A stretch of DNA of 64,000 nucleotides from Eledone cirrhosa (lineage: Eukaryota). The stretch covers positions 44,516,001 to 44,580,000 of the forward strand of contig OZ024743.1 of assembly GCA_964016885.1 (NCBI GenBank). The letters are read 5' to 3'. This document shows positions 3,311-54,495 of the stretch, in pieces. Each line of letters opens with the position of its first letter. Position 1 is the first letter of the stretch. A model generated the notes under the pieces. That model saw only the letters and a program-made list of their open reading frames with translations, was not told the origin of the DNA and made no database searches. Position numbers and translations under genes: made by a program.

Positions 3311-3324
3311 TATATATATATCCA

Positions 3325-3412
3325 TAAATAGAGGTGTTACACACGAGTTGTGATATATTAAAAATAGGAAAAGAAAATGCTGACAAATCTTTCCCAATGA
3401 AAAATAGTTTAT
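3325..3412 (-). mobile_element. Truncated PLE 3' terminus, same family as 1898-1992
   Basis: Reverse complement of the 1898-1992 motif; lies within TA repeats. Confidence 0.7.
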
Positions 3413-3414
3413 AC

Positions 3415-3541
<127 letters not shown>

Positions 3542-3611: not shown

Positions 3612-3773
3612 GTGTGTGTGTGTGTGTGTTTGTGTGTGTGTGAGTGTAAAAGTTCTATTTAAATGTTTGGGATACAACAAGCAAATATGTTTATAACTGA
3701 TATAAAGCACTCAACAATATTTGGAGTAAAAATACGATATTAACAAATGAAGACTATATTTATAAACCATATT

Positions 3774-3838
3774 TATTTCATTATACATATTTCAAGGACA
3801 CCAAGTTAAATTATGGTGTGCTTTCATCGGATAAAATA
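3774..3838 (-). ncRNA. Hammerhead ribozyme, inverted copy with a CCGAUGA core
   Basis: Reverse complement of 6405-6469 with U4>C. Confidence 0.65.
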
Positions 3839-6404: not shown

Positions 6405-6469
6405 TATTTTATCTGATGAAAGCACACCATAATTTAACTTGGTGTCCTTGAAATATGCATAATGAAATA
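6405..6469 (+). ncRNA. Type I hammerhead ribozyme
   Basis: Stem I UAUUUUAU/AUGAAAUA; CUGAUGA at 6413; stem II AAG-C-ACACCA/UGGUGU-C-CUU; GAAA at 6450; short stem III AU[AUGC]AU. Predicted cleavage after A6461. Confidence 0.85.
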
Positions 6470-6512
6470 AATATGGTTTTATAAATATAGTTTCCATTTG
6501 TTAATATCGTTT

Positions 6513-9516: not shown

Positions 9517-9798
9517 TATATATATACATACATATACATGTGTATGTATAGAAATTGATTGACATATATCTGTATATATAAAATAAGCATATGAAACAAT
9601 CACCGAATAATTTGTAAAAGTGTGTAAGCACACATAGCTATGTAGATAACTAATTAAAGTTTAACTAGAACTGTAAAAATAGATACCTTATAAATGGATT
9701 AATCTACCTTGTATATATTTCATTAAAGAAATATATTTCACCATCAATATGGCGCATGTCTCCCTGACATGACCCCCTTAAATTAATTTAATTTAATT

Positions 9799-9834
<36 letters not shown>

Positions 9835-9845
9835 CGTTTCTGAAT

Positions 9846-11582
9846 TTGTTTAGCAAGATTCTTTATCTGAAATCGTGTGTTGAAACCGATATTGTTATAC
9901 TTTGGGAGGGTCATGTTGCCAATAAGAATGGCAACACTAACGAGGCAATTAAATGGTTCAATAAAATACAAAATAGGGAGACGTGTAACTTCATACAATT
10001 TGATATAGACGACTATTATGCATCCATATCCCCAGCTACCCTAGATAAGGCGCTTATATTTGCCCAAAATAACTCTGATCTTAACCATGATGAAATTGAA
10101 ATAATAATAGCGGCTAGAAGGACTATCGTAAAATTTGAAAATAACTACTGGGTAAGAAAGGATAGAATAAATAGCTTCGATATTACAATGGGATCAAATG
10201 ATTCTGCGCAAATTACAGATATCGTGGGGCTATTCATAGCACACAACCTACATAAGGAATTCAGTAACCTCCAAGGAGGAATTTATAGAGACGACACGTT
10301 ACTTATAGCTAGGAACCTAAACAACCAGAGCATGGAAAGACTAAGGAAAAATATTAGAATATTCTTCAAAAAACTAGGCCTAAGTATTACCTACGAACTA
10401 AACCATAAGAAGGTAAATTTTCTAGATGTAACTCTAAATCTAAATACTGGATTAATAGAACCTTTCCACAAAAATAATGAAAATCTTGCCTACATTAGTT
10501 ACAACTCAAATCACCCCAAATCCATAATTAAATCCATAGCACGTAGTATATCCCTCCGAATATCCCGCTTATCCTCAAACCTAGAAAGCTTTAACGAGCA
10601 TGCTGACTATTATAATGCAGCATTAAATAGGGCCGGTCATAAAGATAAACTACAGTATATAGTGAATAAGGACAACATAAACAATCCTAGTAATTTCTAC
10701 TCCAACCGCTCACATAATAATAGGAATAGCTTGACTAGACATAGGGTTAGACATGTAACACCTAGAGTAAACGGCCAAAACACTAATAACGTAAACCCTA
10801 GAAACAATAGAAGAAACAGACAAAGAAAATACCTATGGTTCAACCCAATATTCAACTCCTCTATAAAAACTAGACTGCCCTCTACATTCTTTAAACTAAT
10901 AGATAAACACTTCCCTATCTCGCATAGATATCACAAAATACTCAATAGATCTACTATAAAACTCTCTTTCTCAACAGCAGCTAACATAGAATCACACATA
11001 CGCAAGATCAACCACAGAAATATCTCAAGTAAATCAATTGCACCTATACATAAGCACAAACTCATCACAACATCACAACCACAAGCGCATACAAACGCGC
11101 AGCAGCAAAACCCCATTGGGCATATATCACAACCCACTTATAACAGGGTACTAAATAGGAATGTAAAAGCTGCACAAAATAGCGCCTCAAACTGCAACTG
11201 TCACCTCCCAGATAGGTGCCCATTGGCGAATAGATGTCTCGATTCGAGCCTGGTGTACATGTGCACTGTCATCTCGGGTAACTCCACCTGGAATTACATA
11301 GGATCCACCGCGGGTTCTTTTAAGAAAAGATGGTATGTGCACAGGCACTCAATGAAAAACCGTGCACTTATGGGTTCCACCACCCTCGCCAGAAAAATAT
11401 GGGAATTGAAGGACAGCAACACTAACTACACTATCAACTGATCGAAGTTGTCGGCTGCTAAAACCTATAGTACAGGGATGTCCTATTGCGGGCTGTGTGA
11501 TCTTGAGCTATTGTATATCCTTAGAAATGTTAAAAGGCTACTTAATAATAAGTTAGAAAGATCTAATTTTTTTCAGACATAG
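9846..11582 (+). pseudogene. PLE RT/GIY-YIG ORF with a premature TGA at 11439-11441
   Basis: The frame continues past the TGA (a conserved Trp position) into SKLSAAKTY...CGLCDLELLYIL...LLNNKLE. Confidence 0.85.
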
Positions 11583-26657: not shown

Positions 26658-29600
26658 CCGAATTAGTGTGGTATAGACAAGTACATATGTTGTTGAGGTG
26701 CATAATTTTGTCAATACTCTGATATGTCCAGTTCCTGGTTAGGTTGTTATTTCTCTGAGGAACTGGAATCATATGAATTCAAACAAACGAATTTCAGTGT
26801 CAAAGGGCCACTTCTCCTCTCATTGGTCAATTGTTAGAACATTCCTCATTCTAAGTGTTGTATTTGTTGTAGTTAGCTTAAAAAATTGATAAAGTGGTAG
26901 AAGGAACAAGGTGGTAAAGGAACAAAATAACAAAAAAAAGTGTCAAACTTCCCATTGGTCAGTTTTGAGAGCATTCCTCAGTCAGAAGTCTATAGAATTC
27001 TTTCTGGGGTGAGGCTCCCTGTAGTGTTTGTATTTGCTATTGTTAAGTACATTTGCCCTCTACCATTATTTCGGTAGTGTTGTTGGTGTTGTGGTCAGCT
27101 TATGTCTTGCTGCTGCTGACAATTTAGAAGTATCTGTGTGTGTTTTTTCTTCATCCCTCCTGCCACCATCTCTCATAGTGGTGGTGGTTTCTTCCATGTA
27201 TATGAAGAAATATAAGGCAATGAATGAAGAAAACAGAAAATAAATAATATATAGGGAATAAAGAATAAAGAATAAAGAATAAATGAAAAATTGGTGAAAA
27301 AGTAATGAAAATGAATATGGAGAAGTGAAAAGTAAAATGAAGATTCAAATAAAGTAGGATAAAGTGTGTGTGCTATAACCAATCTCAAAGTCAGAAATAA
27401 GTTGAATAGATTGGTAAGATGTTAAAATAAGATAATCAAACAAAATGTGTTTGTGTTATAATCAATCTCAACTTAAAAATAAATATAAGGTGATACAGTG
27501 AAGAGGGCAGAAAACAAATAACAAATTAATAAAGAGAAATCAAGATTTAAAATTGGAACTTGAAAATCAGAAATCAAGTAAATTAAAATGTGTTTGTGTT
27601 ATATAGATGTTGGCCAAATTATAATGGCTGTGTCCGATTCAATCTCTAGGCTATCATGGTGTCTGCTAAGCCTGGGTTGTTCCCTATGGCTTGAGGGGTA
27701 TTCACAACCTAGGATGTTGTTACTGCCCATATAGCTTGAGGGAGGACTGGCCGAGAGGTATTTACATGTTCTGTCGAAGTCCCTATAGCTTGAGGGGAGT
27801 TCACATCTTCTTGTATTGCTACTGTCCATATATCTTGAGGAAGGTCCCGGCTCTAAGTATCCACCTCTTAGTATCTCGAGGGTCTCGTTCAGGCATAGTT
27901 TGCATATGCAATATCCCCGTTTATCGCGTGGTACTTTCCTGATTATGTACCAGGCCAGAGAGTACGGGGTCCTGTCCAGCTTAACCTTCCAGATCAGGTC
28001 GGAGAGAGTCGTGCTCTTCCTTTTGGCCTCCTTATTGAATGAATGGCGATGGTTGTACCAGTGGTCTTTAAAGCTCGTTGATGTGGCTCCTATGTAGAGG
28101 TGTTCGGAGTTGGGGGTTTTAACCCTACAACCGTATACTAGGTTCTTCTTTAGGTATTCATTACCAAGGGGGCATGATTCGGGGTTTCTGCAGTTGCAGA
28201 GGGTGGTCGACCTCTGCCTGCCTAGATTAGGGTTCCCGTTATGTGTTATATGTTGGTCTTCCCCCAGGCACGGTGGGGGCTCCCCGGGTCTGTTTGGGTT
28301 TCTTGGGTGGGCTTTGGGTGCCCCCTTCCCCCCTTTCATATGGTTCTGCTGAGTGCTTGTATTGCCATCTTCTGGTTGTGTGTGGTTTTTAAGCCTACTC
28401 CTGTTGATGCTAGCTATGTGTTGGGCCAGATTTCTCGTGGTGGAATACGAGAGCTTCACAGTGTGTCTGTTGAAGATCCAGTGGTCCCTTGGGAAGCATT
28501 TATATTGTCATGCAATGGTCATGCACGGGAGAAGTAATAGAATGGTTTAAGATACTGCATGAGAAAAGTAGGACCAACTTTATACAACTGGACATCGCAA
28601 GCTACTACTCCTCAATCTCACCCATAGTACTTAATAAGGCCCTATTTTTAGCGATGGCCAATACGGATCTAAACCGAGAGGAGGTGAGCATCATCCACGC
28701 CGCAAGAAAGACTTAATCCGTTTCGATGGAGACATTTGGAGCAGGAGTGATTGGCCAAATAACTTTAACATCACGATGGGCTCCAGCGACTCAGCACAGG
28801 TAACGGACCTGTTTGGGCTCTACGTGCTGAAGCAGATAAAAGATGAAATCCCCTGCCTGGGCGGCGGATTATATCGTGACGATGCTCTATTCACAGTATA
28901 TGACCACAGCACCAATATGTTGGAGGGAATGAGGAGGTGTATTCGCCATTTCTTTAAGAACCAGGGGCTAAGTATAGAAATAGACCCAAATAGGAAGGTA
29001 GTTATCTTCCTAGACACCACCCTAAACCTGAACACCAAACAATACTACCCCTACCACAAGCCCAACGAGAAACTCGTATATGTTAACGCCAAATCAAACC
29101 ACCCTAGATCCATAACCAAGGCAGTGGTGAAGAGTGTCTCCGACAGGATCTCCAGCCTGTCCGCAAGTAAGGAAATATTCAATAACCACGCGGAATATTA
29201 CAACGCAGCTCTAAATTAGGCGGCACATGGCCAAAATATAACGTATAGTCTGAAACGCCGGGATGGGGATAGCCCAACATACACCCACACCAGCGTTTCC
29301 CGGGGGGGGGACCCTAACAATGCAAGCAGAGCAAAAACAAATAGGCACCATGTGCCCTACACCACCACACGGGCGGTGGTGACTAGTAAGCTTAACCACG
29401 AGATGAAACACAATATGCGTAACAGTCTCAGGGGTGACGCTAACCACCCCAGGACCGACGACCCCACCCGGAAGACACGTAGGGGGGCCACCCCACGATA
29501 GATCTCCCAGCGCGGGCAACGACCACCCCACAGATTCGAGCCGTGAAGATAACAAAAAGCATAGCGCCCAAAGGGGAAGCAACAGTGCGGGAACCACCAG

Positions 29601-31657
29601 CAATCCAACAAATCTCCAACAAATCACTACGCTCCCGACCCGCACATATAGGAGGAGACACCGAAAAATCACGCGGTACAACCCACCCTACTCAGCGGAC
29701 CTAAAGAGCAGCGTGGCCCGATCATTCTTTGGAGCACTTGATAAATGCTTCCCGAGGGACCATAGATACCACAGGATCTTCAACAGACACACTGTGAAGC
29801 TCTCGTATTCCACCACGAGAAATCTAGCCCAACACATAGCTAGCATCAACAGGAGTAGGCTTAAAAACCACACACAACCAGAAGATGCCAATACAAGCAT
29901 TCAGCAGAACCATGTGAAAGGAGGGAAGGGGGAACCCGGAGCCCACCCAAGAAACCCAAACAGACCCGGGGCCCCCACCGTGCCTGGGGGAAGACCAACA
30001 TATAACACATAACGGGAATCCTAATCTAGGCACGGAGAGGTCGACCAACCTCTGCAACTACAGAAACCCAAATAATGCCCCCTTGGTAATGAATGCCTCA
30101 AGAAGAACTTAGTATACGGTTGTAGGGTTAAAACCCCCAACTCCGAACACCTCTACATAGGAGCCACATCAACGAGCTTTAAAGACCGCTGGTACAACCA
30201 TCGCCATTCATTCAATAAGGAGGCCAAAAGGAAAAGCACGGCTCTCTCCGACCTGATCTGGAAGCTTAAGCTGGACAGGACCCCGTACTCTCTGACCTGG
30301 TACATAATCAGGAAAGTACCACCCGATAAAGGGGGATGTTGCATATGCAAACTATGCCTGAACGAGACACTCGAGATAATAAGAGGTGGAAACGGCCTGA
30401 GAAACCTCAGAACCGACTTCTTCGGGACATGCAGACACCTTAGAGCCGGGACCTTCCACAAGATATATGGACAGTAGCAACACAAGAAGATGTGAAGTCC
30501 CCTCAAGCTATAGGGACTTCTACAGAACATGTAAATACCTCTCGGCCAGACCTCCCTCAAGCTATATGGGCAGTAACAACACCCTAGATTGTGAACTCCC
30601 CTTAAGCCATAGGGATCAACCCAGGCTGAGCAGACACCATGATAGCCTAGAGATTGAATCGGACACAGCCATTATAATTTGGCCAACATCTATATAACAC
30701 AAACACATTTTAATTTACTTGATTTCTGATTTTCAAGTTCCAATTTTAAATCTTGATTTCTCTTTAATTTGTTATTTGTTTTCTGCCCTCTTCACTGTAT
30801 CACCTTATATTTATTTTTAAGTTGAGATTGATTATAACACAAACACATTTTGTTTGATTATCTTATTTTAACATCTTGTTCCTCATACCATTCTATCCAA
30901 CATATTTCTGACCTTGAGATTGGTTATAGCACACACACACACTTTATCCTACTTTATTTGAACCTTCATTTTATTTTTCACTTCTCCATATTCATTTTCA
31001 TTACTTTTTCACCAATTTTTCATTTATTCTTTATTCTTTATTCTCTATTTATTATTTATTTTCTGTTTTCTTCATGTATTGCCTTATATTTCTTCATATA
31101 CATGGAATAAGCCCCCTCCTCCCACCACCACCACCACTATGAGAGATGGTGGCAGGATGGATGGAGAAAAAACACACACAGATACTTCTAAATTGTCAGC
31201 AGCAGCAAGACATAAGCTGACCACAACACCAACAACACTACTGAAATAATGGTAGAGGTCAAATGTAGTTAACAATAGCAAACACAAACACTACAGGGAG
31301 CCTCACCCCAGAAAGTATTCTATAGACTTCTGACTGAGGAATGCTCTCAAAACTGACCAATGGGAAGTTTGACACTTTTTTTTGTTATTTTGTTCCTTTA
31401 CCACCTTGTTCCTTCTACCACTTTATCAATTTTTTAAGCTAACTCGAACAATAACAACACTTAGAATGAGGAATGTTCTAACAACTGACCAATGAGAGGA
31501 GAAGTGGCCCTTTGACACTGAAATTCGTTTGTTTAAATTCATATGATTCCAGTTCCTCAGAGAAATAACAACCTAACCAGGAACAGGACATATCAGAGTA
31601 TTGACAAAATTATACACCTCAACAACATATGTACTTGTCTATACTACACTAATCCGG

Positions 31658-32646: not shown

Positions 32647-32730
32647 TCTTGTGTGTGGGTTCAATCTGGGGTAACCACATTAAGTAAGGTACTTAATACA
32701 TAGCAGAGTATAGATAGTTAATATATAAAT

Positions 32731-32782
32731 GGCTTCTACAGGACTATAACTGTTTCATTCGAAGGAAATCATCACGAAAGCC
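32731..32782 (-). ncRNA. Degenerate type I hammerhead ribozyme in a short fold-back
   Basis: GGCUUU C(G)UGAUGA U[UUC CUUC GAA]U GAAA CAG..CUG UA GAAGCC. A partial inverted copy lies at 32802-32844. Confidence 0.65.
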
Positions 32783-32841
32783 CTTCATCAAGGCATACCT
32801 CATGATTTCCTTCGAATGAAACAGTTCTAGTCCTGTAGAAT

Positions 32842-32898
<57 letters not shown>

Positions 32899-34244: not shown

Positions 34245-35459
34245 ATGGCTAGAAATAACAAAATTGCCATGGTGATATCCATCGATGAAATATGCGACAA
34301 AACTGGCCGATGTTCCAAAATAGAACATTGCCCAGAAGATCACACCTGCCATATCTGTACGGAACCCGAAAACTCGTTCCGTAATCGTTGGATCGAATGT
34401 GGAACCTGTCGCATCTCTGTCTGCCTTCAATGCGCCACGGGCTTCCGGAAGATCCCAGGCCAAAATAAGAAACATCATATTGCTACGATGGATAGACTCT
34501 GGGAGATGGTCCAGCTAACAAACTAGTCCTTTCAGTGCCTGGACTGTATGCCTGCTTCTCCCATTGCTGCGGAACAACAACAACAACAAAGACCGAAGAT
34601 CGTGTCTTCTACCATTGTTCCCGAACAACAACAACAAAAACCGAGGATCGTGTCTTCCTTTACCATTGTTCCTGAACAACAGCAAAAACCAACGACCGTA
34701 GCTTCTGCTACTACCCCCGTTGAAGGACTTCATCAACAACAGCAACCCATGTCTTCCTCACCCGTTACTTTTCAACAACAACCGACGACTGTTGAAGGAG
34801 AAGAACAACAACAAAAACCGACCGTCAATACGGAGTTTGAGAAAATACGGCAAATGATTTCCGCTTTAAGTCAAGAAATAGCAGAAATAAAATCAAGCGT
34901 TCGTGTAGAACCCCACAATGAGGGATCTTACCGGAGTGCCTTGTTAAAAAATCTCCGCGTACCTCATGTTGAACCTAGACGCATTGAGAATGCCACTGAA
35001 TCTGCAAACCACGAAGTGATTGCCATTGGTGTGCCGGAAGACATAGTTGATCTTCAGGCATTTGCTGCCAGTTCATCCAAAGACCTGGGCTGTGCTCCCA
35101 CAAAGGGTGCTATACGCCTTGGCCGACCAGGCCCGAAACCCAAGTTAATTAGACTGTCGTTTTCAAACTCAACTGAGGCACGTTCATACCTTGTAGCCTC
35201 TGATAAAGCTAGGCGTGAAAGTCGGATTGCTTTCCGAACACGTCCTGGTCTTCCACCTGATGTCCGCCCAAAGTTGCGTGCTGCAGCTTCCCTAAGCCGC
35301 AGCTCGGCAGGACATGAAAGCTTCAGCCTACGAGATGATGGGCAGATATGGACGTTTGTTAAGGCTGGCGAATCATGGAAAAGAGACACCGGCTGGTCTG
35401 AAAACACTGTACCCACAACAACTGACAATAAAGAAACTGAAAAAACTCTGGGAAACTAA
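34245..35459 (+). pseudogene. CR1-like ORF1 (PHD finger, Q-rich repeats, coiled coil, RRM-like), one frameshift near 34515
   Basis: CHIC...WIECGTC....C..C, completed by FQCLDC in the next frame; RLGRPGPKPKLIRLSF; ends LGN-stop. Confidence 0.8.
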
Positions 35460-37833
35460 ATCAGAAGAGAGCCACTTATGTTTTCATTGCAGGTGACTTC
35501 AATCACCCTGAGATTGACTGGGAGACCTTTCGTTGGCCGCCAAGTGCAAATGACTTCCTTGAGCTGGTGCTGGACTCGAGTTGGTCCCAGGTGGTCACCT
35601 CCCCAACGAGAGGTGACAACACTTTGGACCTACTCTTCACCACTACTCCTGAAACGGTCATTAGTGTTACTGCTGAGGAACCTTTAGGTGACTCTGATCA
35701 TGCTATGATCATTGCCAATCTATCCCTCATGGGAAGTAACAAGAACCACAACCATCTCCAAACTGCTCAGTTTGACTGGAATAAAGCAGACTGGAACTGT
35801 TACTGCACCGAGTTGCAACGGCCAAACTGGCTTGAGTTCTACGACTCTGGAGATGTCAACACTGTACTCCAGAACATCCTGAGCTCAATATGGACAGCAT
35901 GTGCAGCATCGGTGCCACGTAAGCAGAAAAAAACATCCCAAAAGCGCAATTTGGGAGACTGCAGCAGTCCGTCTTGCCAGAAAAGAACGGCGCAATGCTC
36001 AACGTGAGTACAAACTTCACAAATCAGACATTAATAGGAAGAGGCGAAATAGATCGTCCAACCACCTCAAACAGGTGACAAAAAAGGCAGTGCTTCAATT
36101 TGAGCAGCGCATAGCAACCAGCCCTGACAGTAAGGTGTTCTGGAAGTATGTTCACTCAAAGCAGAGGCCTCACTCTCCAGTTGGTCCTCTTCGCAATCCC
36201 CACACCAGCCAGGTTACTGACGACCCCAAGGAATGCGCAGAGCTCATTGCTGATTGCTATACAGGCATTTTCACTATTGAAGACCAGAGTGTGCCATCTC
36301 CACCACCTATGACACCGGACTCTATTACAACTATGGAATTTACACCTGCAATGCTGCGACGTCACCTAAAAAATAAACGCAACCATGCCTCTCCTGGTAT
36401 TGATGGTGTTACGTACCTGCTTCTTAAACGTGGTGGGTACTTCCTTCTACACCAGTTATCACGCTTCTTCCAATTCTGAACAACAGTGCTACTCCAGAAC
36501 AGTGGAAAACTGCCAGTGTCATTCCTCTGTTCAAAAAGGGTGACCGCACATCACCTGTGAACTATCGTCCAGTCAGTCTTACTAGTTGCATCGCCAAACT
36601 GATGGAATCCTGTGTCAGGGAAACACTTTGGAACTTCTGGAGCTCTCAGTCTTATCCGGCCCTCGCAATTTGGATTTATCCCCAACTCCAGCTGCTGTGA
36701 TCAACTTATAGAGTTTCTTGAGGACATCACCCGGATCACTGATGGCGGCTCATGGGTGGATGTTGTTTACCTTGACTTTGCGAAGGCCTTGAATTCTGTG
36801 CCACACAAAAGGCTTATGGCAAAACTCTCTGCAATGGGTGTGAAGGATGATCTTTTTAACTGGTTGAAGTCCTTCATTCTCAGTCGAATAGAGGTAGTTA
36901 CGGTTCTGGGACAGCATTCCTCACCATATGAGATGTCATCTGGTGTACCACAGGGACCTGTTCTTGGCCCCCTTTTGTTTGTGGCATATATTGATGACAT
37001 AGATGCCAACTTAAGGAATGCCACAGTACTAAAGTACGCAGACGACATCAAGCTGTACCTTGAGATAAAAAGGACAGATCCTGAACACTATAGATCTTGC
37101 TTGCGGTCTGACCTGGACACAATGCAACAATGGATCTCAGACTGGCAAATCAAGCTAGCTGTGGACAAGTGCACCACCATGGATTTTGGGAGTAAAAACC
37201 CAGCGTCCACATACTCCCTCCACAGCACTAATATCAAGAAGTCTTCCTGTGAACGTGACCTGAGCATTACGGTCAGCAGCGATTTGCGTTGGACGAGGTA
37301 CGTCTCTAAATTTGTCAAGAGGGCCGAGGGTGTCTTAGCATCACTCAGCAAGACCTTTGTCAGCCGCTCTCCAGATATCTATTTAAGGCTGTATACAGCT
37401 ATGGTGCGACCACACTTAGAATTTTCATCACCAGTCTGGAACCCCTATCTTGCTCAGGACATTGACCGCCTGGAAACTGTTCAGAGACGTGCAACCAAGC
37501 GAATACCCTCCATCAGGCATCTACCATACTCTGAGCGCCTTGCTTCCCTGGGCATGGATTCATTGAAGCTCCGACTTGGTAAACACCCACAAAATTGTTA
37601 ACCATGTTGCCAACAACAACCCTGAGTACCTTTTTGATTTCCATGTGTCTAACACACGTGGACATGTCCACAAAGTAAGAAAAGAGCACAGTTCCCATGA
37701 CTTTCGGAATCATTTTTTCACGCTCAGAGTTGCTGAAGCATGGAACAAACTACCTGCATCAGTTGTTAGCAGTCGAGACACTGCATCCTTTAAGGCCTCC
37801 ATGCTTCCCGAGATCCACCAACACTACAGCTAA
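35460..37833 (+). pseudogene. CR1-like ORF2 (partial APE endonuclease plus RT), several frameshifts
   Basis: ORF pieces 35567-36007, 35901-36479, 36612-37601 and 37576-37833. Confidence 0.9.
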
Positions 37834-38012
37834 CACATACACACATGTACTTCCCTGACATTTGTGTATTATTATGTGTACTATATTGACGAGTTGTGGT
37901 GCACCTGAGCACTTTACACAATAATTTCATTATTATTATTATTCATATATTAGTTTAACTCTGGATGTTGCAGGAAAAGGGCCTTAATGTCTGTTTTATA
38001 TATATAAATAAA

Positions 38013-38057
<45 letters not shown>

Positions 38058-38079
38058 CCAGCCTCCTGTCATTTCATTG

Positions 38080-38139
<60 letters not shown>

Positions 38140-38533
38140 ATACATATACATATAAAAACAAATAACGAAACGAAATTAAATTTCGTTTCGTTTGTAACTC
38201 ACTTTTGTATGACTGACGCTTAAACAATTAAGTCAAAAATGTACATCCACATATGTATACTGAAATACTAGTATGCATATGAATACACACACGTATACAT
38301 ATGTAGATGTACCGAGTTTTTCACTGGTCACTTTACCGTGAGTGTCCAGCTATTCTGTATGTAAACACACAGACAAACCGGTTTTTAGAGTCATACTGGT
38401 TTTTGAGGAAACACCTTTCCTCTATTCTGCAGAAAGCCAAATGCAAATTTGTCTGCCCACTACTAATTTTCATAGAAAAAGCATATAACGATATGTGCTT
38501 TTACGATTCTCTAGAAAGGCCGGAAGATAGGTA

Positions 38534-38578
38534 AATGTTGCTGATGAGTTGTAACAACAACGAAACTAGTTCAATATT
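38534..38578 (+). ncRNA. Minimal type I hammerhead ribozyme, copy 1
   Basis: AAUGUUG CUGAUGA GUUGU AACA ACAAC GAA A[CUAG]U U CAAUAUU. Complete core; predicted cleavage after U38571. Confidence 0.92.
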
Positions 38579-38999
38579 CCTTGTCTGGCTTTCTGGAGAA
38601 TAGAGGAAAGGTGTTTCCTCAAAAACCAGTATGACTCTAAAAACCGGTTTGTCTGTGTGTTTACATACAGAATAGCTGGACACTCACGGTAAAGTGACCA
38701 GTGAAAAGCTCGGTACATCTACATATGTATACGTGTGTGTATTCATATGCATACTAGTATTTCAGTATACATATGTGGATGTACATTTTTGACTTAATTG
38801 TTTAAGCGTCAGTCATACAAAAGTGAGTTACAAACGAAACTAAATTTAATTTCGTTTCGTTATTTGTTTTTATCGTCTCCGTTGAACCGGTACGTACTCA
38901 CGCTCTATGCAAATTAGTATGCCCACTACTAATTTTCATAGAAAAAGCATATAACGATATGTGCTTTTACGATTCTCTAGAAAGGCCGGAAGATAGGTA

Positions 39000-39044
39000 A
39001 ATGTTGCTGATGAGTTGTAACAACAACGAAACTAGTTCAATATT
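39000..39044 (+). ncRNA. Minimal type I hammerhead ribozyme, copy 2
   Basis: Identical to copy 1 and 466 nt downstream; predicted cleavage after U39037. Confidence 0.92.
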
Positions 39045-39273
39045 CCTTGTCTCGCTTTCTGGAGAATAGAGGAAAGGTGTTTCCTCAAAAACCAGTATGA
39101 CTCTAAAAACCGGTTTGTCTGTGTGTTTACATACAGAATAGCTGGACACTCACGGTAAAGTGACCATTGAAAAACTCGGTACATCTATATATGTATACGT
39201 GTGTGTATTCATATGCATACTAGTATTTCAGTATACATATGTGGTTGTACATTTTTGACTTAATTGCATATAC

Positions 39274-39523
<250 letters not shown>

Positions 39524-39525
39524 TA

Positions 39526-40190
39526 TAATGAAATGACAGGAGGCTGGATTTGTGTAAATCCTTGAAAGGTTTATTATACTATGATCATTTCAACGACCGG
39601 GTTCCGTATGAATCCGATGATATCATCAGGTATTCGAAATATAATACGTGAATGTAATAGATAAAATCCATGGGGCTGAAAATCGAGGACCCGAGGGCGA
39701 CCGCTATGTTGTTCCTTCAACCTCACCCGGACGCCCTCGAGTGACGTGGCTAAAGTTTATAGTATGCTACTACCGGTCAGATAAACGAAAACAGAAAGAG
39801 ATGGGAACATAAGTTAGCGTCAATCTCATGACACAAGGTAAAAGAAAGGAAGGAAGGAAGGAGAGCGAAGAAGGGGGAAGAAAGAATGAGAGAAGCCAGG
39901 GTTAATGTCAGCTAAAGGAAGAAAGCCAACTACTACCGGTCAGATATAGGCAAGCAAGAGGGGGAAGTAAGATAAGTCTGCGGGAGGAAGACAGGAAGAG
40001 GGGAGAAGAGAAGGAAGAGAGACGTAGAAAAGTAAGGGTTGATGGCTACAAGAAGGAAGATAGAAAGAAAGAGGAAGAAAGGTCGATATTAATGTCAGAC
40101 CACCGTCAGGCCTGGAGTGGAGCGAGAACATTTTCACAGGGACCCGGATCTTAGCAGAGGTGATATATTGGGAGTCAGTGTGTTGCAATG
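39526..40190 (-). mobile_element. PLE-type 3' UTR remnant
   Basis: Ends in AATCCAGCCTCCTGTCATTTCATT before (TA)n, a terminus that also occurs alone at 38055-38080. Carries an HHR. The distal boundary is approximate. Confidence 0.55.
39576..39633 (-). ncRNA. Type I hammerhead ribozyme
   Basis: AUAC CUGAUGA U[AUCAUCGGAUUC AUACG GAACCCGGUCGU]U GAA AU[GAUC]AU A GUAU. Confidence 0.8.
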
Positions 40191-40464
40191 TTTAGACTTA
40201 TAGGATGAAGTTCAAAAATTAATAATCAATATTCAATATTAAAAAGGTTAGAAAATTTAAAGTTCAACGGTTTAACATTTTCAGGTTGATATATCTAATA
40301 GTTCCGATTTGTTCTGTAATTTAAAGCTACTATGTGGCGGTTCAAACACCGGCCGCGCCCCGGGCCCCACGGCGAATTAAGCTACGCCGAGTATTTTCAT
40401 TTCCTTTTATCCACTCTAACTGGTGCGTAATGGTCCAACTGGTCCCTTACCACACGTTCTTCGT

Positions 40465-40517
<53 letters not shown>

Positions 40518-40573
40518 TATATATATATAAGGAAGAACGTGTGGTAAGCGACCACGTAGACCATAACGCACCA

Positions 40574-46815: not shown

Positions 46816-49800
46816 TTACTTGTTGTTGTTGTAGTGGTAGGGGTTGTGGTGTTGACAGTGGTTGGTAGTGGTGGTGACGGTGGTTGGTAGTGGTGGTAGG
46901 GGTAGCGTTGGTGACAGTGGTTGGTAGTGGTGGTAAGGGTGGTTGAAAGGGGTGGTAGGGGTAGCGGTGGTGAAGATGGCTGGTTGTGGTGGTAGGGTAG
47001 TGGTGGTGAAGGTGGTTGGTAGTGGTGGTGACGGTGGTTGAAAGTGGTGGTAGGGGTAGCGTTGGGGACAGTTGTTGGTAGTGGTGGTGACGGTGGTTGT
47101 TAGTGCTGGTAGTGGTAGCGGTGGTGAAAATGGCATGATGTGGTGGTAGTGGTAGTGGTGGTGACGGTGGTTGGTAGTGGTAGCGGTGGTGACGGTGGTT
47201 GGTAGTGGTGGTAGTGGTAGCGGTGGTGAAGATGGCTGGTTGTCGTGGTAGGGGTAGTGGTGGTGACGGTGGTGGGTAGTGGTGGTAGTGGTAGTGGTGT
47301 TGACGGTGGTGTTGACGGTGGTGGGTAGTGGTGGTAGTGGTAGTGGTGTTGACGGTGGTGGGTAGTGGTGGTAGGGATAGTGGTGGTGAAGGTGGTTGGT
47401 AGTGGTGGTAGAGGTAGTGGTGGTGACGTTGTTTGCTAGTGGTGGTAGGGGTAGTGGTGGTGACGGTGATTAGTAGTGGTGGTAGTGGTAGTGGTGGTGA
47501 CGGTGGTTGTTAGTGCTGGTAGTGGTAGCGGTGGTGAAGATGGCTGGTTGTGGTGATAGTGGTAGTGGTGTTGACGGTGGTGGGTAGTGGTGGTAGGGGT
47601 AGTGGTGGTGAAGGTGGTTGGTAGTGGTGGTAGAGGTAGTGGTGGTGACGGTGCTTGGGAGTGGTGGTAGGGGTAGTTCTGGTGAAGGTGGTTGGTAGTG
47701 GTGGTAGGGGTAGTGGTGGTGACGGTGGTTGGTAGTGGTGGTAGTGGTAGTGGTGGTAGGGTTAGTGGTGGATGCGTGGTTGGTAGTGGTAGTAGTGGTA
47801 GTGGTGGTGACGGTGGTTGATAGTTGTGGTAGCGGTGGTGAAGAAGGCTGGTTGTAGTGGTAGGGGTAGTGGTGGTGGCGGTGGTTGGTTGTGGTGGTAG
47901 TGGTAGTGGTGGTGACGGTGGTTGGTTGTAGTGGTAGTGGTGGTGACGGTGGTAGTGGTAGTGGTGGTAAGGGTAGTGGTGGTGACGGTGGTTGGTAGTG
48001 GTGGTAGGGGTAGTGGTGGTGATGGTGGTTGGTAGTGGTGGTAGTGGTAGTGGTGGTGACGGTGCTTGGTAGTGGTGGTGGCGGTGGTTGGTAGTGGTGG
48101 CAGGGGTAGTGTTGGTGACGGTGGTTGGTAGTGGTGGTAGTGGTAGTGGTGGTGACGGTGGTTGGCAGTGGTGGCAGGGGTAGTGGTGGTGACGGTGGTT
48201 GGTAGTGGTGGTAGTGGTAGTGGTGGTGACGGTGGTTGGTAGTGGTGGCAGGGGTAGTGGTGGTGACGGTGGTTGGTAGTGGTGGTAGTGGTAGTGGTGG
48301 TGACGGTGGCTGGTAGTGGTGGTAGGGGTAGTGTTGGTGACGGTGGTTGGTAGTAGTGGTAGAGGTAGTGGCGGTGACGTTGGTTGGTAATGGTGGTAGA
48401 GGTAGTGGTGGTGACGGTGGTTGCTAGTGGTGGTAGGGGTAGTGGTGGTAGTGGTGGTGACGGTGGTTCGTAGTGCTGGTAGTGGTGTGGTGGTGGCGGT
48501 GCTTTGTAGTGGTGGTAGTGGGGTGGTGGCGGTGGTTGGTAGTGGTGGTAGTGGTGTGGTGGTGGCGGTGGTTGGTTGTAGTGGTAGTGGTAGTGGTGGT
48601 GACGGTGGTTGGTAGTGGTGGTAGAGGTAGTAGTGGTGACGGTGGATGGTATTGTGGTAGTGGTGTGGTGGTGGCGGTGGTTGGTAGTGGTGGTAGTGGT
48701 AGTGGTGGTACGGTGGTTGGTAGTGGTGGTAGTGGTGTGGTGGTGGCGGTGGTTGGTTGTAGTGGTAGTGGTAGTAGTGGTGGCGGTGGTTGGTTGAAGT
48801 GGTAGTGGTGGTGACGGTGGTTGGTAGTGGTGGTAGTGGTAGTGTTGGTGGCGGTGGTTGGTAGCGGTGGTAGTGGTGTGGTGTTGGCGGTGGTTGGTTG
48901 TAGTGGTAGTGGTAGTGGTGGTGGCCGTGGTTGGTTGTAGTGGTAGTGGTAGTGGTGGTACGGTGGTTGGTAGTGGTGGTAGTGGTGTGGTGGTGGCGGT
49001 GGTTGGTTGTAGTGGTAGTGGTAGTGGTGGTGACGGTGGTTGGTAATGGTGGTAGTGGTGTGGTGGTGGCGGTGGTTGATTGTAGTGGTAGTGGTAGTGT
49101 TGGTGACGGTGGTTGGTCGTGGTGGTAGGGGTAGTGGTGGTGGCGGTGGTTGGTAGTGGTAGTGGTGGTGACGGTGGTTGGTTGTAGTGGTAGTGGTAGT
49201 GGTGGTGACGGTGGTTGTTTGTAGTGGTAGTGGTAGTGGTGGTACGGTGGTTGGTAGTGGTGGTAGTGGTGTGGTGGTGGCGGTGGTTGGTTGTAGTGGT
49301 AGTGGTAGTGGTGGTGACGGTGGTTGGTAATGGTGGTAGTGGTGTGGTGGTGGCGGTGGTTGATTGTAGTGGTAGTGGTAGTGGTGGTGACGGTGGTTGG
49401 TCGTGGTGGTAGGGGTAGTGGTGGTGGCGGTGGTTGGTAGTGGTAGTGGTGGTGACGGTGGTTGGTTGTAGTGGTAGTGGTAGTGGTGGTGACGGTGGTT
49501 GTTTGTAGTGATAGTGGTAGTGGTGTTGACGGTGGTGGGTAGTGGTGGTAGGGGTAGTGGTGGTGAAGGTGGTTGGTAGTGGTGGTAGAGGTAGTGGTGG
49601 TGACGGTGCTTGGGAGTGGTGGTAGGGGTAGTTCTGGTGAAGGTGGTTGGTAGTGGTGGTAGGGGTAGTGGTGGTGACGGTGGTTGGTAGTGGTGGTAGT
49701 GGTAGTGGTGGTAGGGTTAGTGGTGGATGCGTGGTTGGTAGTGGTAGTAGTGGTAGTGGTGGTGACGGTGGTTGATAGTTGTGGTAGCGGTGGTGAAGAA

Positions 49801-52800
49801 GGCTGGTTGTAGTGGTAGGGGTAGTGGTGGTGGCGGTGGTTGGTTGTGGTGGTAGTGGTAGTGGTGGTGACGGTGGTTGGTTGTAGTGGTAGTGGTGGTG
49901 ACGGTGGTAGTGGTAGTGGTGGTAAGGGTAGTGGTGGTGACGGTGGTTGGTAGTGGTGGTAGGGGCAGTGGTGGTGACGGTGGTTGGTAGGGGTGGTAGG
50001 GGTAGTGGTGGTGATGGTGGTTGGTAGTGGTGGTAGTGGTAGTGGTGGTGACGGTGCTTGGTAGTGGTGGTAAGGGTCAGTGGTGGTGGCGGTGGTTGGT
50101 AGTGGTGGCAGGGGTAGTGTTGGTGACGGTGGTTGGTAGTGGTGGTAGTGGTAGTGGTGGTGACGGTGGTTGGCAGTGGTGGCAGGGGTAGTGGTGGTGA
50201 CGGTGGTTGGTAGTGGTGGTAGTGGTAGTGGTGGTGACGGTGGTTGGTAGTGGTGGCAGGGGTAGTGGTGGTGACGGTGGTTGGTAGTGGTGGTAGTGGT
50301 AGTGGTGGTGACGGTGGCTGGTAGTGGTGGTAGGGGTAGTGTTGGTGACGGTGGTTGGTAGTAGTGGTAGAGGTAGTGGCGGTGACGTTGGTTGGTAATG
50401 GTGGTAGAGGTAGTGGTGGTGACGGTGGTTGCTAGTGGTGGTAGGGGTAGTGGTGGTAGTGGTGGTGACGGTGGTTCGTAGTGCTGGTAGTGGTGTGGTG
50501 GTGGCGGTGCTTTGTAGTGGTGGTAGTGGGGTGGTGGCGGTGGTTGGTAGTGGTGGTAGTGGTGTGGTGATGGCGGTGGTTGGTTGTAGTGGTAGTGGTA
50601 GTGGTGGTGACGGTGGTTGGTAGTGGTGGTAGAGGTAGTAGTGGTGACGGTGGATGGTATTGTGGTAGTGGTGTGGTGGTGGCGGTGGTTGGTAGTGGTG
50701 GTAGTGGTAGTGGTGATACGGTGGTTGGTAGTGGTGGTAGTGGTGTGGTGGTGGCGGTGGTTGGTTGTAGTGGTAGTGGTAGTAGTGGTGGCGGTGGTTG
50801 GTTGAAGTGGTAGTGGTGGTGACGGTGGTTGGTAGTGGTGGTAGTGGTAGTGTTGGTGGCGGTGGTTGGTAGCGGTGGTAGTGGTGTGGTGTTGGCGGTG
50901 GTTGGTTGTAGTGGTAGTGGTAGTGGTGGTGGCGGTGGTTGGTTGTAGTGGTAGTGGTAGTGGTGGTACGGTGGTTGGTAGTGGTGGTAGTGGTGTGGTG
51001 GTGGCGGTGGTTGGTTGTAGTGGTAGTGGTAGTGGTGGTGACGGTGGTTGGTAATGGTGGTAGTGGTGTGGTGGTGGCGGTGGTTGATTGTAGTGGTAGT
51101 GGTAGTGTTGGTGACGGTGGTTGGTCGTGGTGGTAGGGGTAGTGGTGGTGGCGGTGGTTGGTAGTGGTAGTGGTGGTGACGGTGGTTGGTTGTAGTGGTA
51201 GTGGTAGTGGTGGTGACGGTGGTTGTTTGTAGTGGTAGTGGTAGTGGTGGTGACGGTGGTTGGTAGTGGTGGTAGGGGCAGTGGTGGTGGCGGTGGTTGG
51301 TAGTGGTGGTACGGATAGTGGTGGTGACGGTGGTTGGTAGTGGTGGTAGTGGTAGTGGTGGTGACGGTGGTTGGCAGTGGTGGTAGGGGCAGTGGTGGTA
51401 GCGGTGGTTCGTAGTGGTGGTAGTGGTAGTGGTGGTAACGGTGGTTGGTAGTGATAGTAGGGGTAGTGGTGGTGAAGATAGCTGGTAGTGGTGGTAGTGG
51501 TAGTGGTGGTGAAGATAGCTGGTAGTGGTGGTAGTGGTAGTGGTGGTGAAGATAGCTGGTAGTGGTGGTTGGTAGTGGTGGTGGTGGTAGTGGTGGTGAC
51601 GGTGATTGGTAGTGGTGGTAGTGGTAATGGTGGTGACAGTGGTTGGTAGTGGTGGTAGTGGTAGTGGTGGTGACGGTGGTAGTGGTAGTGGTGGTGACGG
51701 TGGTTGGTAGTGGTGGTAGCGCTGTGATGGTGGCGGTGGTTGGTTGTGGTGGTAGTGGTGTGGTGGTGGCGGTGGTTGGTAGTTGTGGTAGAGGTAGTGG
51801 TGGTGGCGGTGGTTGGTTGTAGTGGTAGTGGTAGTGGTGGTGACGGTGGTTGGTAGTGGTGGCAGTGGTAGTGGCGGTGACGGTGGTTGGTAGTGGTGGT
51901 AGTGGTAGTGGTGGTGGCGGTGGTTTGTAGTGGTGGTAGGGATAGTGGTGGTGACGGTGGTTGGTAGTGGTGGTAGGGGTAGTGGTGGTGACGGTGGTTG
52001 GTAGTGGTGGTGACGGTGGTTGGTAGTGGTGGCAGTGGTAGTGGCGGTGACGGTGGTTGGTAGTGGTGGTAGTGGTAGTGGTGGTGGCGGTGGTTGGTAG
52101 TGGTGGCAGTGGTAGTGGCGGTGACGGTGGTTGGTAGTGGTGGTAGTGGTAGTGGTGGTGGCGGTGGTTTGTAGTGGTGGTAGGGGTAGTGGTGGTGACG
52201 GTGGTTGGTAGTGGTGGCAGTGGTAGTGGCGGTGACGGTGGTTGGTAGTGGTGGTAGTGGTAGTGGTGGTGGCGGTGGTTTGTAGTGGTGGTAGGGATAG
52301 TGGTGGTGACGGTGGTTGGTAGTAGTGGTAGGGGTAGTGGTGGTGACGGTGGTTGGTAGTGGTGGCAGTGGTAGTGGCGGTGACGGTGGTTGGTAGTGGT
52401 GGTAATGGTAGTGGTGGTGGCGGTGGTTTGTAGTGGTGGTAGGGATAGTGGTGGTGACGGTGGTTGGTAGTGGTGGTAGGGGTAGTGGTGGTGACGGTGG
52501 TTTGTAGTGGTGGTGACGGTGGTTGATAGTGGTGTTAGTGGTAGTGGTGGTGACGGTGGTTGGTAGTGGTGGTAGTGGTAGTGGTGGTGGCGGTGGTTTG
52601 TAGTGGTGGTAGGGATAGTGGTGGTGACGGTGGTTGGTAGTGGTGGTAGGGGTAGTGGTGGTGACGGTGGTTGGTAGTGGTGGTGACGGTGGTTGGTAGT
52701 GGTGGTAGTGGTAGTGGTGGTGACGGTGGTTGGTAGTGGTGGTAGTGGTAGTGGTGGTGGCGGTGGTTTGTAGTGGTGGTAGGGATAGTGGTGGTGACGG

Positions 52801-54495
52801 TGGTTGGTAGTGGTGGTAGGGGTAGTGGTGGTGACGGTGGTTGGTAGTGGTGGTGACGGTGGTTGGTAGTAGTGGTAGTGGTAGTGGTGGTGACGGTGGT
52901 TGGTAGTGGTGGTGACGGTGGTTGGTAGTGGTGGTAGTGGTAGTGGTGGTGGCGGTGGTTTGTAGTGGTGGTAGGGATAGTGGTGGTGACGGTGGTTGGT
53001 AGTGGTGGTAGGGGTAGTGGTGGTGACGGTGGTTGGTAGTGGTGGTGACGGTGGTTGGTAGTGGTGGTAGTGGTAGTGGTGGTGACGGTGGTTGGTAGTG
53101 GTGGTGACGGTGGTTGGTAGTGGTGGTAGTGGTAGTGGTGGTGGAGGTGGTTTGTAGTGGTGGTAGGGATAGTGGTGGTGACGGTGGTTGGTAGTGGTGG
53201 TACTGGTAGTTGTGGTGACGTCAGTTGGTAGTGGTGGTATGAGCAGTGGTGGTGACGGTGGTTGGTAGTGGTGGTAGTGGTAGTGGTGGTGACGGTGGTT
53301 GGTAGTGGTGGTGACGGTGGTTGGTAGTGGTGGTAGTGGTAGTGGTGGTGGTGGTGGTTGGTAGTTGTGGTAGGGGTTGTGGTTGGTAGTGGTGGTAGGG
53401 GTAGTGGTGGTAGGGGTAGTGGTGGTGGCGGTGATTGGTGGTGGTGGTAGAGGTAGTGGTGGTGACAGTGGTTGGTAGTGGTGGTAGGGGTAGCGGTGGT
53501 GAAGAAGGCTGGTTGTAGTGGTAGGGGCAGTGGTGGTGGCGGTGGTTGGTAGTGGTGATAGTGGTAGTGGTGGTGGCGGTGGTAGGTAGGGGTGGTAGTG
53601 GTAGTGGTGGTGGCGGTGGTTGGTAGTGGTGGTAGGGGCAGTGGTGGTGATGGTGTTTGGTTGTAGTGGTAGTGTTAGCAGTGGTGGCGGTGATTGGTAG
53701 TGGTGGTAGTGGTAGTGGTGTTGACGGTGGTTGGTAGGGGTGGTAGTGGTAGTGTTGGTGACGTTGGTTGGTAGCGGTGGTAGGGGTAGTGGTGGTGACG
53801 GTGGTTGGTAGTGGTGGTAGGGGTAGTGGTGGTGACGGTGGTTGGTAGTGGTGGTAGGGGTCTTGGTGGTGGCGGTGGTTGGTAGTGGTGGTAGGGGTCT
53901 TGGTGGTGACGCTGGTTGGTAGTGGTGGTAGGGGTAGTGGTGGTGACGGTGGTTGGTAGTGGTGGTAGGGGTAGTGGTGGTGACGGTGGTTGGTAGTGGT
54001 GGTAGGGGTCTTGGTGGTGGCGGTGGTTTGTAGTGGTGGTAGTGGTAGTGGTGGTTGGTAATGGTGGTAGCGGTATTGGTGGTAGTGGTAGTGGTGGTAG
54101 GGGTAGTGGTGGTGACGGTGGTTGGTAATGGGGGTAGTGGTGTGGTGGTGGCGGTTGTTGGTAGTGGTGGTAGTGGTGTGGTGGTGGCGGTGGTTGGTAG
54201 TGGTGGTAGTCGTTGGTAGTGGTGGTAGTGGTGTGGTGGTGGCGGTGGTTGGTTGTAGTGGTAGTGGTAGTGGTGGTGACGGTGGTTGGTAGTGGTGGTA
54301 GTGGTGGTGACGGTGGATGGTAGTGGAGGTAGTGGTAATGGTGGTGACGGTGGTTGGTAGTGGTGGTAGTGGTGGTGACGGTGGTTGGTAGTGGTGGTAG
54401 TAGTAGTGGTGGTGACGGTGGTTTGTAGTGGCGGTGACGGTGGTTGGTAGTGGTGGTAGGGGTAGTGGTGGTGACGTCGGTTGGTTGTGGTGATA
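46816..54495. repeat. 7.7-kb GGT/AGT-rich minisatellite with an approximately 37-bp unit and a 2-kb higher-order duplication
   Basis: Recurrent unit GGTAGTGGTGGTGACGGTGGTTGGTAGTGGTGGTAG(T/G). Rare variants recur at offsets of 1955-2008 bp. Confidence 0.95.

Follow-up and report, generated by a model that had tools for sequence, protein, structure and literature searches.

Non-LTR retrozymes of metazoans, known from coral, mussel and axolotl (PMC7229834, in the part of that paper available to us), are short, non-coding, low-GC units that occur in tandem, each with one type I hammerhead ribozyme (HHR) and a strongly base-paired monomer. The axolotl HHR_Amex1 has a helix III of one pair closed by a palindromic tetraloop, and needs dimers (PMC7229834). 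Penelope-like elements (PLEs) have been proposed as the likely mobilisers of such retrozymes (Cervera & de la Pena 2020, PMC7229834), and a preprint on vertebrate retrozymes, with units of 51-972 bp, proposes both PLE origin and PLE mobilisation on the evidence of co-occurrence and pLTR similarity, explaining arrays by local amplification (bioRxiv 10.64898/2026.07.22.740005, in its available text). For PLEs themselves, the available sections of recent work describe a PLE protein that cleaves both strands, extends each of them and initiates reverse transcription (RT) at two internal RNA sites, the PLE tail being the sequence between them (Frangieh 2024, PMC11167929), and an inverted copy with a one-sided tail is general to PLEs (Craig 2021, PMC8557442). 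Non-autonomous Chlamys elements such as MRC1 form head-to-tail copies, with canonical HHRs in only two Chlamys subclades (PMC8557442). A third point of reference is newt satellite 2, a tandem HHR unit with an internal small-RNA-gene promoter of snRNA type and a dimer-type HHR, cited in the part of PMC2220036 available to us as transcribed by Pol II; the same source cites a Pol III promoter for the schistosome satellite.

Here we describe an HHR-bearing repeat family of Eledone cirrhosa, starting from one copy in a 64,000-nt stretch of contig OZ024743.1 (positions 44,516,001 to 44,580,000; hereafter the window). The family resembles the metazoan retrozymes in all the features listed above, including the helix III type, with a longer unit (466 nt vs 170-400 nt in PMC7229834); cleavage and circles, which are experimental in PMC7229834, are here predicted from sequence. 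Its insertions carry the two-site tail and tail-out inversion of PLEs, an analysis that does not appear in the available text of PMC7229834 (where 'inverted' has no match). Compared with the vertebrate preprint, no pLTR similarity was found and the integration signature is explicit, whereas neither 'tail' nor 'promoter' occurs in the main text of the preprint as available. With the anole Poseidon and other PLEs (PMC11167929, PMC8557442) the family shares two internal RT starts, a tail at one end, an inverted 5'-truncated copy, an AT-rich or microsatellite target and an HHR, but it has no ORF, its tail measures about 70 nt vs 30-40, and its arms reach up to ~30 identical units. It is built like newt satellite 2 in its tandem HHR unit, internal promoter-like module and dimer-type HHR, differing in that its match is to the PSE+TATA of host U6 and U6atac genes, not U1.

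Results

The element in the window

In the window copy, (TA)n tracts enclose an inverted arm of 288 nt, a complete unit of 466 nt and the first 360 nt of another. A preliminary description had reported a non-coding 466-bp head-to-tail unit preceded by an inverted partial unit and set in (TA)n, and this layout is borne out. The tandem content amounts to 1.77 units, with no long array; the inverted arm (38152-38439) is the reverse complement of 38586-38873 with 3 mismatches in 288, the partial second unit (38907-39266) differs from the first at 7 of 360 positions, and (TA)n tracts lie on both sides. The termini of the element fall away from the predicted cleavage site. The features, in window coordinates, are as follows.

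37997..38151, no strand: left (TA)n target tract, interrupted at 38054-38085 by one arm of an unrelated short inverted repeat
38152..38439, minus strand: inverted arm covering unit positions 433 to 146, with the 'long' reverse-transcription start site at its outer end
38440..38457, plus strand: U6-type proximal element (PSE) of unit 1, disrupted by the inversion junction (10.6 bits; the intact copy has 19.1)
38441..38906, plus strand: full 466-nt unit, 35% GC, non-coding
38484..38489, plus strand: TATA-like box of unit 1, recognised by its sequence; predicted start ~38514, with spacing taken from host U6 genes
38523..38586, plus strand: type I hammerhead 1, predicted cut after 38571 (GUU)
38534-40/38572-78, plus strand: hammerhead 1 stem I
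38541-47, plus strand: hammerhead 1 core
38548-52/38557-61, plus strand: hammerhead 1 stem II
38562-65, plus strand: hammerhead 1 GAAA
38565-70, plus strand: hammerhead 1 palindrome
38572..39037, plus strand: predicted cut-to-cut monomer or circle, 466 nt, with a highly base-paired fold prediction
38713..38784, plus strand: long TA-rich hairpin with a 20-bp basal stem, kept in sister family B
38800..38873, plus strand: 'tail' of ~70 nt, bounded by the short (unit 359-364) and the long (unit 433) start sites
38906..38923, plus strand: intact U6-type proximal element of unit 2 (matrix match; shuffles 0/1000)
38907..39266, plus strand: partial unit 2, positions 1-360, stopping at the 'short' start site
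38950..38955, plus strand: TATA-like box of unit 2, from sequence comparison with host U6 genes
38989..39052, plus strand: type I hammerhead 2, identical to hammerhead 1, predicted cut after 39037
39268..39527, no strand: right (TA)n target tract

The whole element sits inside the (TA)n loop of another, 32-nt inverted repeat (38054-38085 and 39520-39551, 97% complementary), apparently the end of a different element, and similar TA-looped inverted repeats are present at 40438-40556 and 32723-32851. A decayed LINE with endonuclease and RVT_1 (34527-37830) lies just to the left, and a GGT-rich tandem array of 7.5 kb (46863-54435) further to the right.

The hammerhead and the predicted monomer

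Each hammerhead in the window is composed of stem I (AAUGUUG/CAAUAUU), CUGAUGA, stem II (GUUGU/ACAAC with an AACA loop), GAAA and the palindrome ACUAGU, and the two copies are identical, as first reported, with a stem III of 1 bp around the palindrome. Their predicted cuts are 466 nt apart and follow GUU, not GUC; GUU is a weaker cleavage triplet of the NUH class. Rfam Hammerhead_HH9 (RF02275) matches them at 36.1 and 35.1 bits (E 2e-5 and 4e-5), below its gathering score of 52. Helix III, a single pair closed by CUAG, has a computed cost of +0.8 kcal/mol in the monomer vs -5.3 kcal/mol without helix III, and pairing of ACUAGU with ACUAGU between two copies is computed at -4.8 kcal/mol. By analogy with the newt and axolotl HHRs (PMC7229834, as available), the predicted architecture is of the dimer type. 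The label 'minimal' given to these hammerheads in the preliminary description has to be replaced: the min-HHRs of PLEs lack helix III and loop 3, whereas a palindromic helix III and an extended stem I are present here, which assigns the motif to the canonical short-helix-III type of metazoans. 'Canonical' is also the term applied to such HHRs in the accessible part of Cervera 2014 (PMC4209133).

The predicted monomer fold has an energy of -160.6 kcal/mol (z = -9.9; as good in 0 of 100 shuffles) and contains the 20-bp stem at 38713-38784 noted earlier. On the circularised monomer the longest ATG-initiated ORF is 50 aa. Rfam microRNA matches in the window were discarded as TA-repeat artefacts.

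Abundance and conservation

At least 7,894 HHR cores of this family are present in the 3.0-Gb genome, 5,251 and 2,643 being exact copies of two stem II variants, while the reversed pattern, used as a control, gave 0 matches. This supplies the copy number that the preliminary description had proposed as a check, and no linked RT ORF was seen among the flanks and ORFs listed. We mapped 82 loci, comprising the window, the 32 best DNA matches and the 49 first listed pattern matches on one contig (C1). The family is a young, very abundant non-coding repeat and, with its tandem type I HHRs, low-GC non-coding unit and dispersed multimers, is by its sequence a non-LTR retrozyme.

The hammerhead core has been kept during this expansion. 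CUGAUGA is invariant at the locus level in 53 loci: 0 of its 7 columns vary, against an overall figure of 108 in 464. Of 81 loci, 50 have U-A and 31 have A-U at the stem II pair 109/120, and at H17 the same 81 have U or C, never G, with L046 as a natural GUC copy (L050, a two-haplotype array, was omitted from both counts); H17 is A in a sister family. Conservation with a compensatory stem II pair points to selection on the HHR core, the predicted function of which is cleavage. For the predicted fold outside the HHR the support is mixed: pairing is lost in 17 of 43 recurrent changes at paired positions and retained in 22, the remaining 4 being compensatory.

Ends of the insertions

Tail-out inverted arrays, in which two arms point outward, were found at 60 of the 82 loci. 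In 54 of these 60, the end of one arm lies at unit 428-435 and that of its partner at 352-369 (a count that takes in L102); the remaining six combine one canonical end with one shortened or cut-off end, and two like ends occur in none of the 60. All 22 single-armed loci likewise end at one of the two sites. At two-armed loci each outer end is a 3' end of the HHR-sense strand, with one end at each of the two fixed sites, and 85 of 92 outer ends tested lie in TA. Inner junctions are spread along the whole unit, with an overlap of 1-9 nt in 35 of 59. The copy in the window is small but typical, with its long end on the left and its short end on the right.

Two fixed 3' ends, a one-sided tail, an inverted 5'-truncated copy and a microsatellite target are the hallmarks by which a non-autonomous PLE would be recognised, and all four were found. 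Because this insertion pattern closely matches that of PLEs, PLE mobilisation of the family is the best-supported step in what we propose below, with a PLE protein as the presumed enzyme. Tandem homogeneous arrays are also generated at the DNA level, as a satellite spreading through eccDNA or a Helitron-like rolling circle, in which case the ribozyme-like motif would be incidental. Such a process is hard to credit here, given outer ends that are always HHR-sense 3' ends at two fixed sites, one each, in the manner of PLEs, and a core conserved with a compensatory pair.

We also considered that the two start sites might be Pol III terminators and rejected this, because the ends of sister family B are not at T-runs. 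In addition, two U6atac pseudogenes (L247, L248) begin directly after (TA)n and were possibly retroposed by the same TA-targeting machinery.

Template of the arrays

Copying begins at two positions inside the unit, ~230 and ~300 nt downstream of the cut, and passes the cut many times, so that the template must be a circle or an uncleaved multimer, not a cleaved linear monomer. From the long start, no more than 302 nt could be copied off a cut linear monomer. This length is exceeded by 125 of 141 arms, 59 of the 141 run beyond two units, and the longest reaches 14.3 kb. Reading across the cut site is clean: in 426 units there are 3 indels and no junction scars. The preliminary description had an excised monomer being moved by a PLE RT: the PLE machinery stands, given the end pattern (54/60), and the cleaved linear monomer as template does not.

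Multimers could in principle also be made by an RT that jumps end-to-end between cleaved linear monomers. This would fit an enrichment of inner ends just 3' of the cut (unit 132-160) in our first set (13/76, P 0.0008), but the second set gave 3/42 (P 0.49) with no end at 132, and the clean crossing of the cut and the near-identity of units within a locus both speak against it, making such jumping very improbable. RT stopping at the cut site was rejected, the first-set enrichment being unreplicated in the second.

Variation within and between arrays bears on the choice between a circle and an uncleaved multimer. Across 33 loci, the median distance between units is 0.43% in the same arm, 0.22% in opposite arms and 3.6% between loci. 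In nine of 18 long arrays, changes are absent or confined to single units: L095, with 7+13 pieces, has 0 variable columns, L061 (8+9) has 1, and L053, L054, L058 and L097 have singletons only. Variants that are private to one locus and array-wide number 24 in 17 loci, and 18 of the 24 are found in both arms ('private' meaning private among 81 sampled loci of probably thousands; the divergent L219 was set aside). Near-identical units in two arms together with private array-wide variants are best explained by rolling-circle copying of an RNA circle, which we regard as the probable origin of the arrays. L056, which alternates two haplotypes in both arms, shows the pattern that a dimeric template may give. 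At another locus (L050), two different haplotype blocks are joined in one arm.

Shared or periodic variants characterise the other 9 of 18 long arrays and are the product of later block duplication, as seen in L040, L047, L102, L214 and L232; local amplification is therefore real and could inflate arm length. These block duplications also fit a reading in which the PLE copies an uncleaved linear multimer, long arrays form later through local unequal exchange, and the HHR is a passenger or serves another step. The clean read-through of the cut site fits it equally, and in the available text on the anole PLE, HHR cleavage is dispensable and uncleaved RNA is the main template in vitro (PMC11167929). 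However, a linear multimer calls for an additional reduction to one unit, with renewed expansion in both arms, before mutations build up; it sits uneasily with the homogeneous arrays of L095, L061, L053, L054, L058 and L097, and leaves the selection on the HHR core unexplained. We therefore consider it unlikely, and retain rolling-circle copying. Weighing against self-cleavage, the vertebrate (Xenopus) preprint, in its accessible part, reports that 8 of 9 retrozyme dimers tested failed to cleave in vitro (bioRxiv 10.64898/2026.07.22.740005).

Array-wide variants were also examined for a signature of A-to-I editing. The first set held 28 A>G vs 11 T>C changes (P 0.004), an imbalance that did not recur in 29 new loci, which held 18 vs 16 (7 vs 8 when counting new-only variants); the pooled count is 35 vs 19 (P 0.017). 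A>G plus T>C changes make up 54 of 108 array-wide vs 72 of 384 single-unit variants, an excess that may be due to mis-polarisation. Each of the four private array-wide changes in L061 is A>G, and two are adjacent, a pattern resembling ADAR editing.

Sequencing runs under other organism labels, both of unspecified type, contain the unit as well. One (X4) has a single 496-nt contig corresponding to window 38738-39233, which exceeds a full unit by 30 nt, the assembly expected from a closed loop of a single variant; as the kind of run is unspecified, we give this no evidential weight. In the other (X5, a third label) three contigs span the whole unit.

A candidate promoter in the unit

The promoter of newt satellite 2, which is said to be of snRNA-gene type, prompted a comparison of the unit with host snRNA genes. 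TATGC(A/T)AAT(T/G)AG..CC at -77 to -79 with a TATA at -30 is found at 7 of 15 host U6 loci; six others have an insertion between motif and TATA, one has the motif far upstream and one is without it. A PSE matrix built from three host U6 promoters scores 38906-38923 in the window at 19.1 bits, which none of 1000 shuffles reached. As a held-out case, the best of six U6atac loci scores 13.0 bits at -78 on the U6 matrix, the other five being pseudogene-like and without the motif. A Pol II promoter of U1 type was rejected: on the U6 matrix, none of six host U1 upstream regions exceeds 4.6 bits, and the octamer is absent from 11 distinct U1 upstream regions.

The TATA-like box would place the transcription start ~57 nt before the cut. 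PSE-TATA spacing, counted from the PSE start, is 44 nt in the window family (family A), 43-44 in families B and D, 48 in E and 47-49 in host U6 genes, so that the unit has the PSE sequence of a host U6-type (type 3) promoter with a spacing 4-5 nt shorter than in host U6. In families B, D and E, HHRs or their decayed remnants are likewise preceded by the PSE+TATA module. The PSE overlaps a predicted RNA hairpin, which could conserve it for a reason other than promoter function, and each unit has four T4-T5 runs, at which Pol III would be expected to stop before completing a monomer. On balance, the match to host elements makes the module rather more plausible than not as the promoter of the unit. 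Since the inversion junction disrupts the first PSE in the window (10.6 bits), this copy may yield monomers poorly.

Sister families and the search for a PLE partner

The genome contains several related or parallel families. A pattern dominated by family B has 14,082 matches, with units of about 430-540 nt; B is homologous to the window family along its full length and has the same two ends. It is a larger sister retrozyme family (L063-L082) with the same helix III palindrome, a GUA/GUU triplet and a length-variable TA hairpin, and one of its arrays, on contig C3 near 12.27-12.31 Mb, exceeds 40 kb. Family C (310 nt, ACGCGU palindrome, tail of about 30 nt) is unrelated in sequence to the window family; it is an HHR retrozyme with tail-out arrays (L042, L051, L076, L081), and its sequence just past the cut site matches a distal element ~260 nt upstream of host U1 and U6 genes. 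Families D and E (L173-L179) are older repeats in which a PSE+TATA module lies ahead of a decayed hammerhead, E having U6-like spacing (48 nt).

Young, abundant PLEs with long open frames are present in three groups, which we take from their motifs to be Poseidon-like, Neptune-like and Hydra-like; Pfam finds RVT_1 in their ORFs and, in L190, also GIY-YIG. All three were considered as partners and rejected, having tails of 39, 37 and 89 nt, respectively, vs about 70 nt and no common 3' end. The window itself carries Hydra-like PLE fragments with inverted ends in TA (2079-3420, 3720-6511, 9792-11560 and 27599-30477), an HHR-like motif at 6413 among them, and a young Hydra-like family at 2513-3058 with the core variant CAGAAGA and an 89-nt tail.

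The abundance of young PLE families, three of which we followed to their ends, raises the question of whether the unit is the detached pseudo-LTR of an unsampled autonomous PLE, as proposed for Xenopus retrozymes, of which 24 of 57 families matched Repbase TEs, nearly all PLEs (bioRxiv 10.64898/2026.07.22.740005, as available). This concerns the origin of the unit and is compatible with the same mechanism. Among the flanks and ORFs listed, however, no PLE ORF is joined to the unit, and nearby PLE ORFs are separated from it by TA tracts; thus the pLTR attached to an ORF, which the preliminary description had named as the case against its reading, was not seen. The unit follows a GIY-YIG end in 0 of 28 cases (L031-L102 plus the window), the 40 Poseidon- and Neptune-like loci compared resemble it only in the TA-rich hairpin, and a search for other ACUAGU-type cores returned no ORF-linked HHR in 7 loci, only family variants or non-HHR sequence. 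The PSE motif is absent near the autonomous PLEs listed, and no LTR-type layout was seen in the mapped loci. On this sampling, a pseudo-LTR origin appears improbable.

Discussion

With a probability of about 0.7, we regard the family as a protein-free HHR element with an internal U6-type promoter, whose RNA is predicted to cut itself into 466-nt circles that are copied into (TA)n by a borrowed PLE RT/endonuclease. From the sequence match to host genes we infer a first step in which the PSE+TATA of one unit would start an RNA ~57 nt before the cut that continues into the next unit. Two HHRs would then pair through ACUAGU into a 6-bp helix III, cleave, and release an exact monomer that carries the next promoter; the core is conserved, and cleavage is expected from the newt and axolotl precedent. 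A host ligase would close the circle, as suggested by the available text of PMC7229834. The PLE protein would cut both strands of TA-rich DNA and prime two cDNAs, at unit ~433 and ~360, a step read from the observed end pattern, with the enzyme proposed on the model of PMC11167929 (as available). Each cDNA would roll for 0.1 to more than 10 turns, and joining of the inner ends by short microhomology would yield the tail-out inverted, near-identical array that is the structure observed. Some arrays would later grow by local block duplication, of which L040, L047, L102 and L214 are examples.

A stronger version of this proposal, which we put forward tentatively and at somewhat less than even odds, is that the element is a self-contained viroid-like RNA circle with a genomic phase, rather than one derived from a PLE end. 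It would supply its own promoter of snRNA-gene type, a ribozyme and an RT entry signal with two sites, and be written into the genome by a PLE protein through rolling-circle, twin-primed RT, each insertion being a clonal record of one circle. Several such families (A-E) would coexist in the genome and probably use different PLE clades.

The class to which the family belongs, the non-LTR retrozymes, is known, and the link to PLEs was proposed in 2020 and 2026 (PMC7229834; bioRxiv 10.64898/2026.07.22.740005; in the parts available). The suggestion in the preliminary description that the family is undescribed therefore holds for the family and not for the class or its PLE link. In the literature covered, we did not find in print the family, its integration signature of PLE tails on retrozymes, or its promoter module, a U6-type element in retrozymes; the family may be annotated in Repbase, Dfam or the preprint supplements.

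That a PLE enzyme moves animal retrozymes and that a circle is the template has been a proposal since 2020. The insertions described here carry the tail signature recently traced to internal initiation by PLEs, and their arrays look clonal. The signature names an enzyme class, two start positions and a polarity, so that a single RNA and a single protein would suffice to test the circle model directly, and the family provides unusually direct genomic evidence for the retrozyme mechanism. Developers of RNA-templated insertion tools would also take an interest in a PLE protein that rolls on a circle of 466 nt with a portable entry signal of 70 nt. If the U6-type module works, it would explain how a retrozyme can be expressed without a host gene, and would extend the design of newt satellite 2 to a distant invertebrate lineage.
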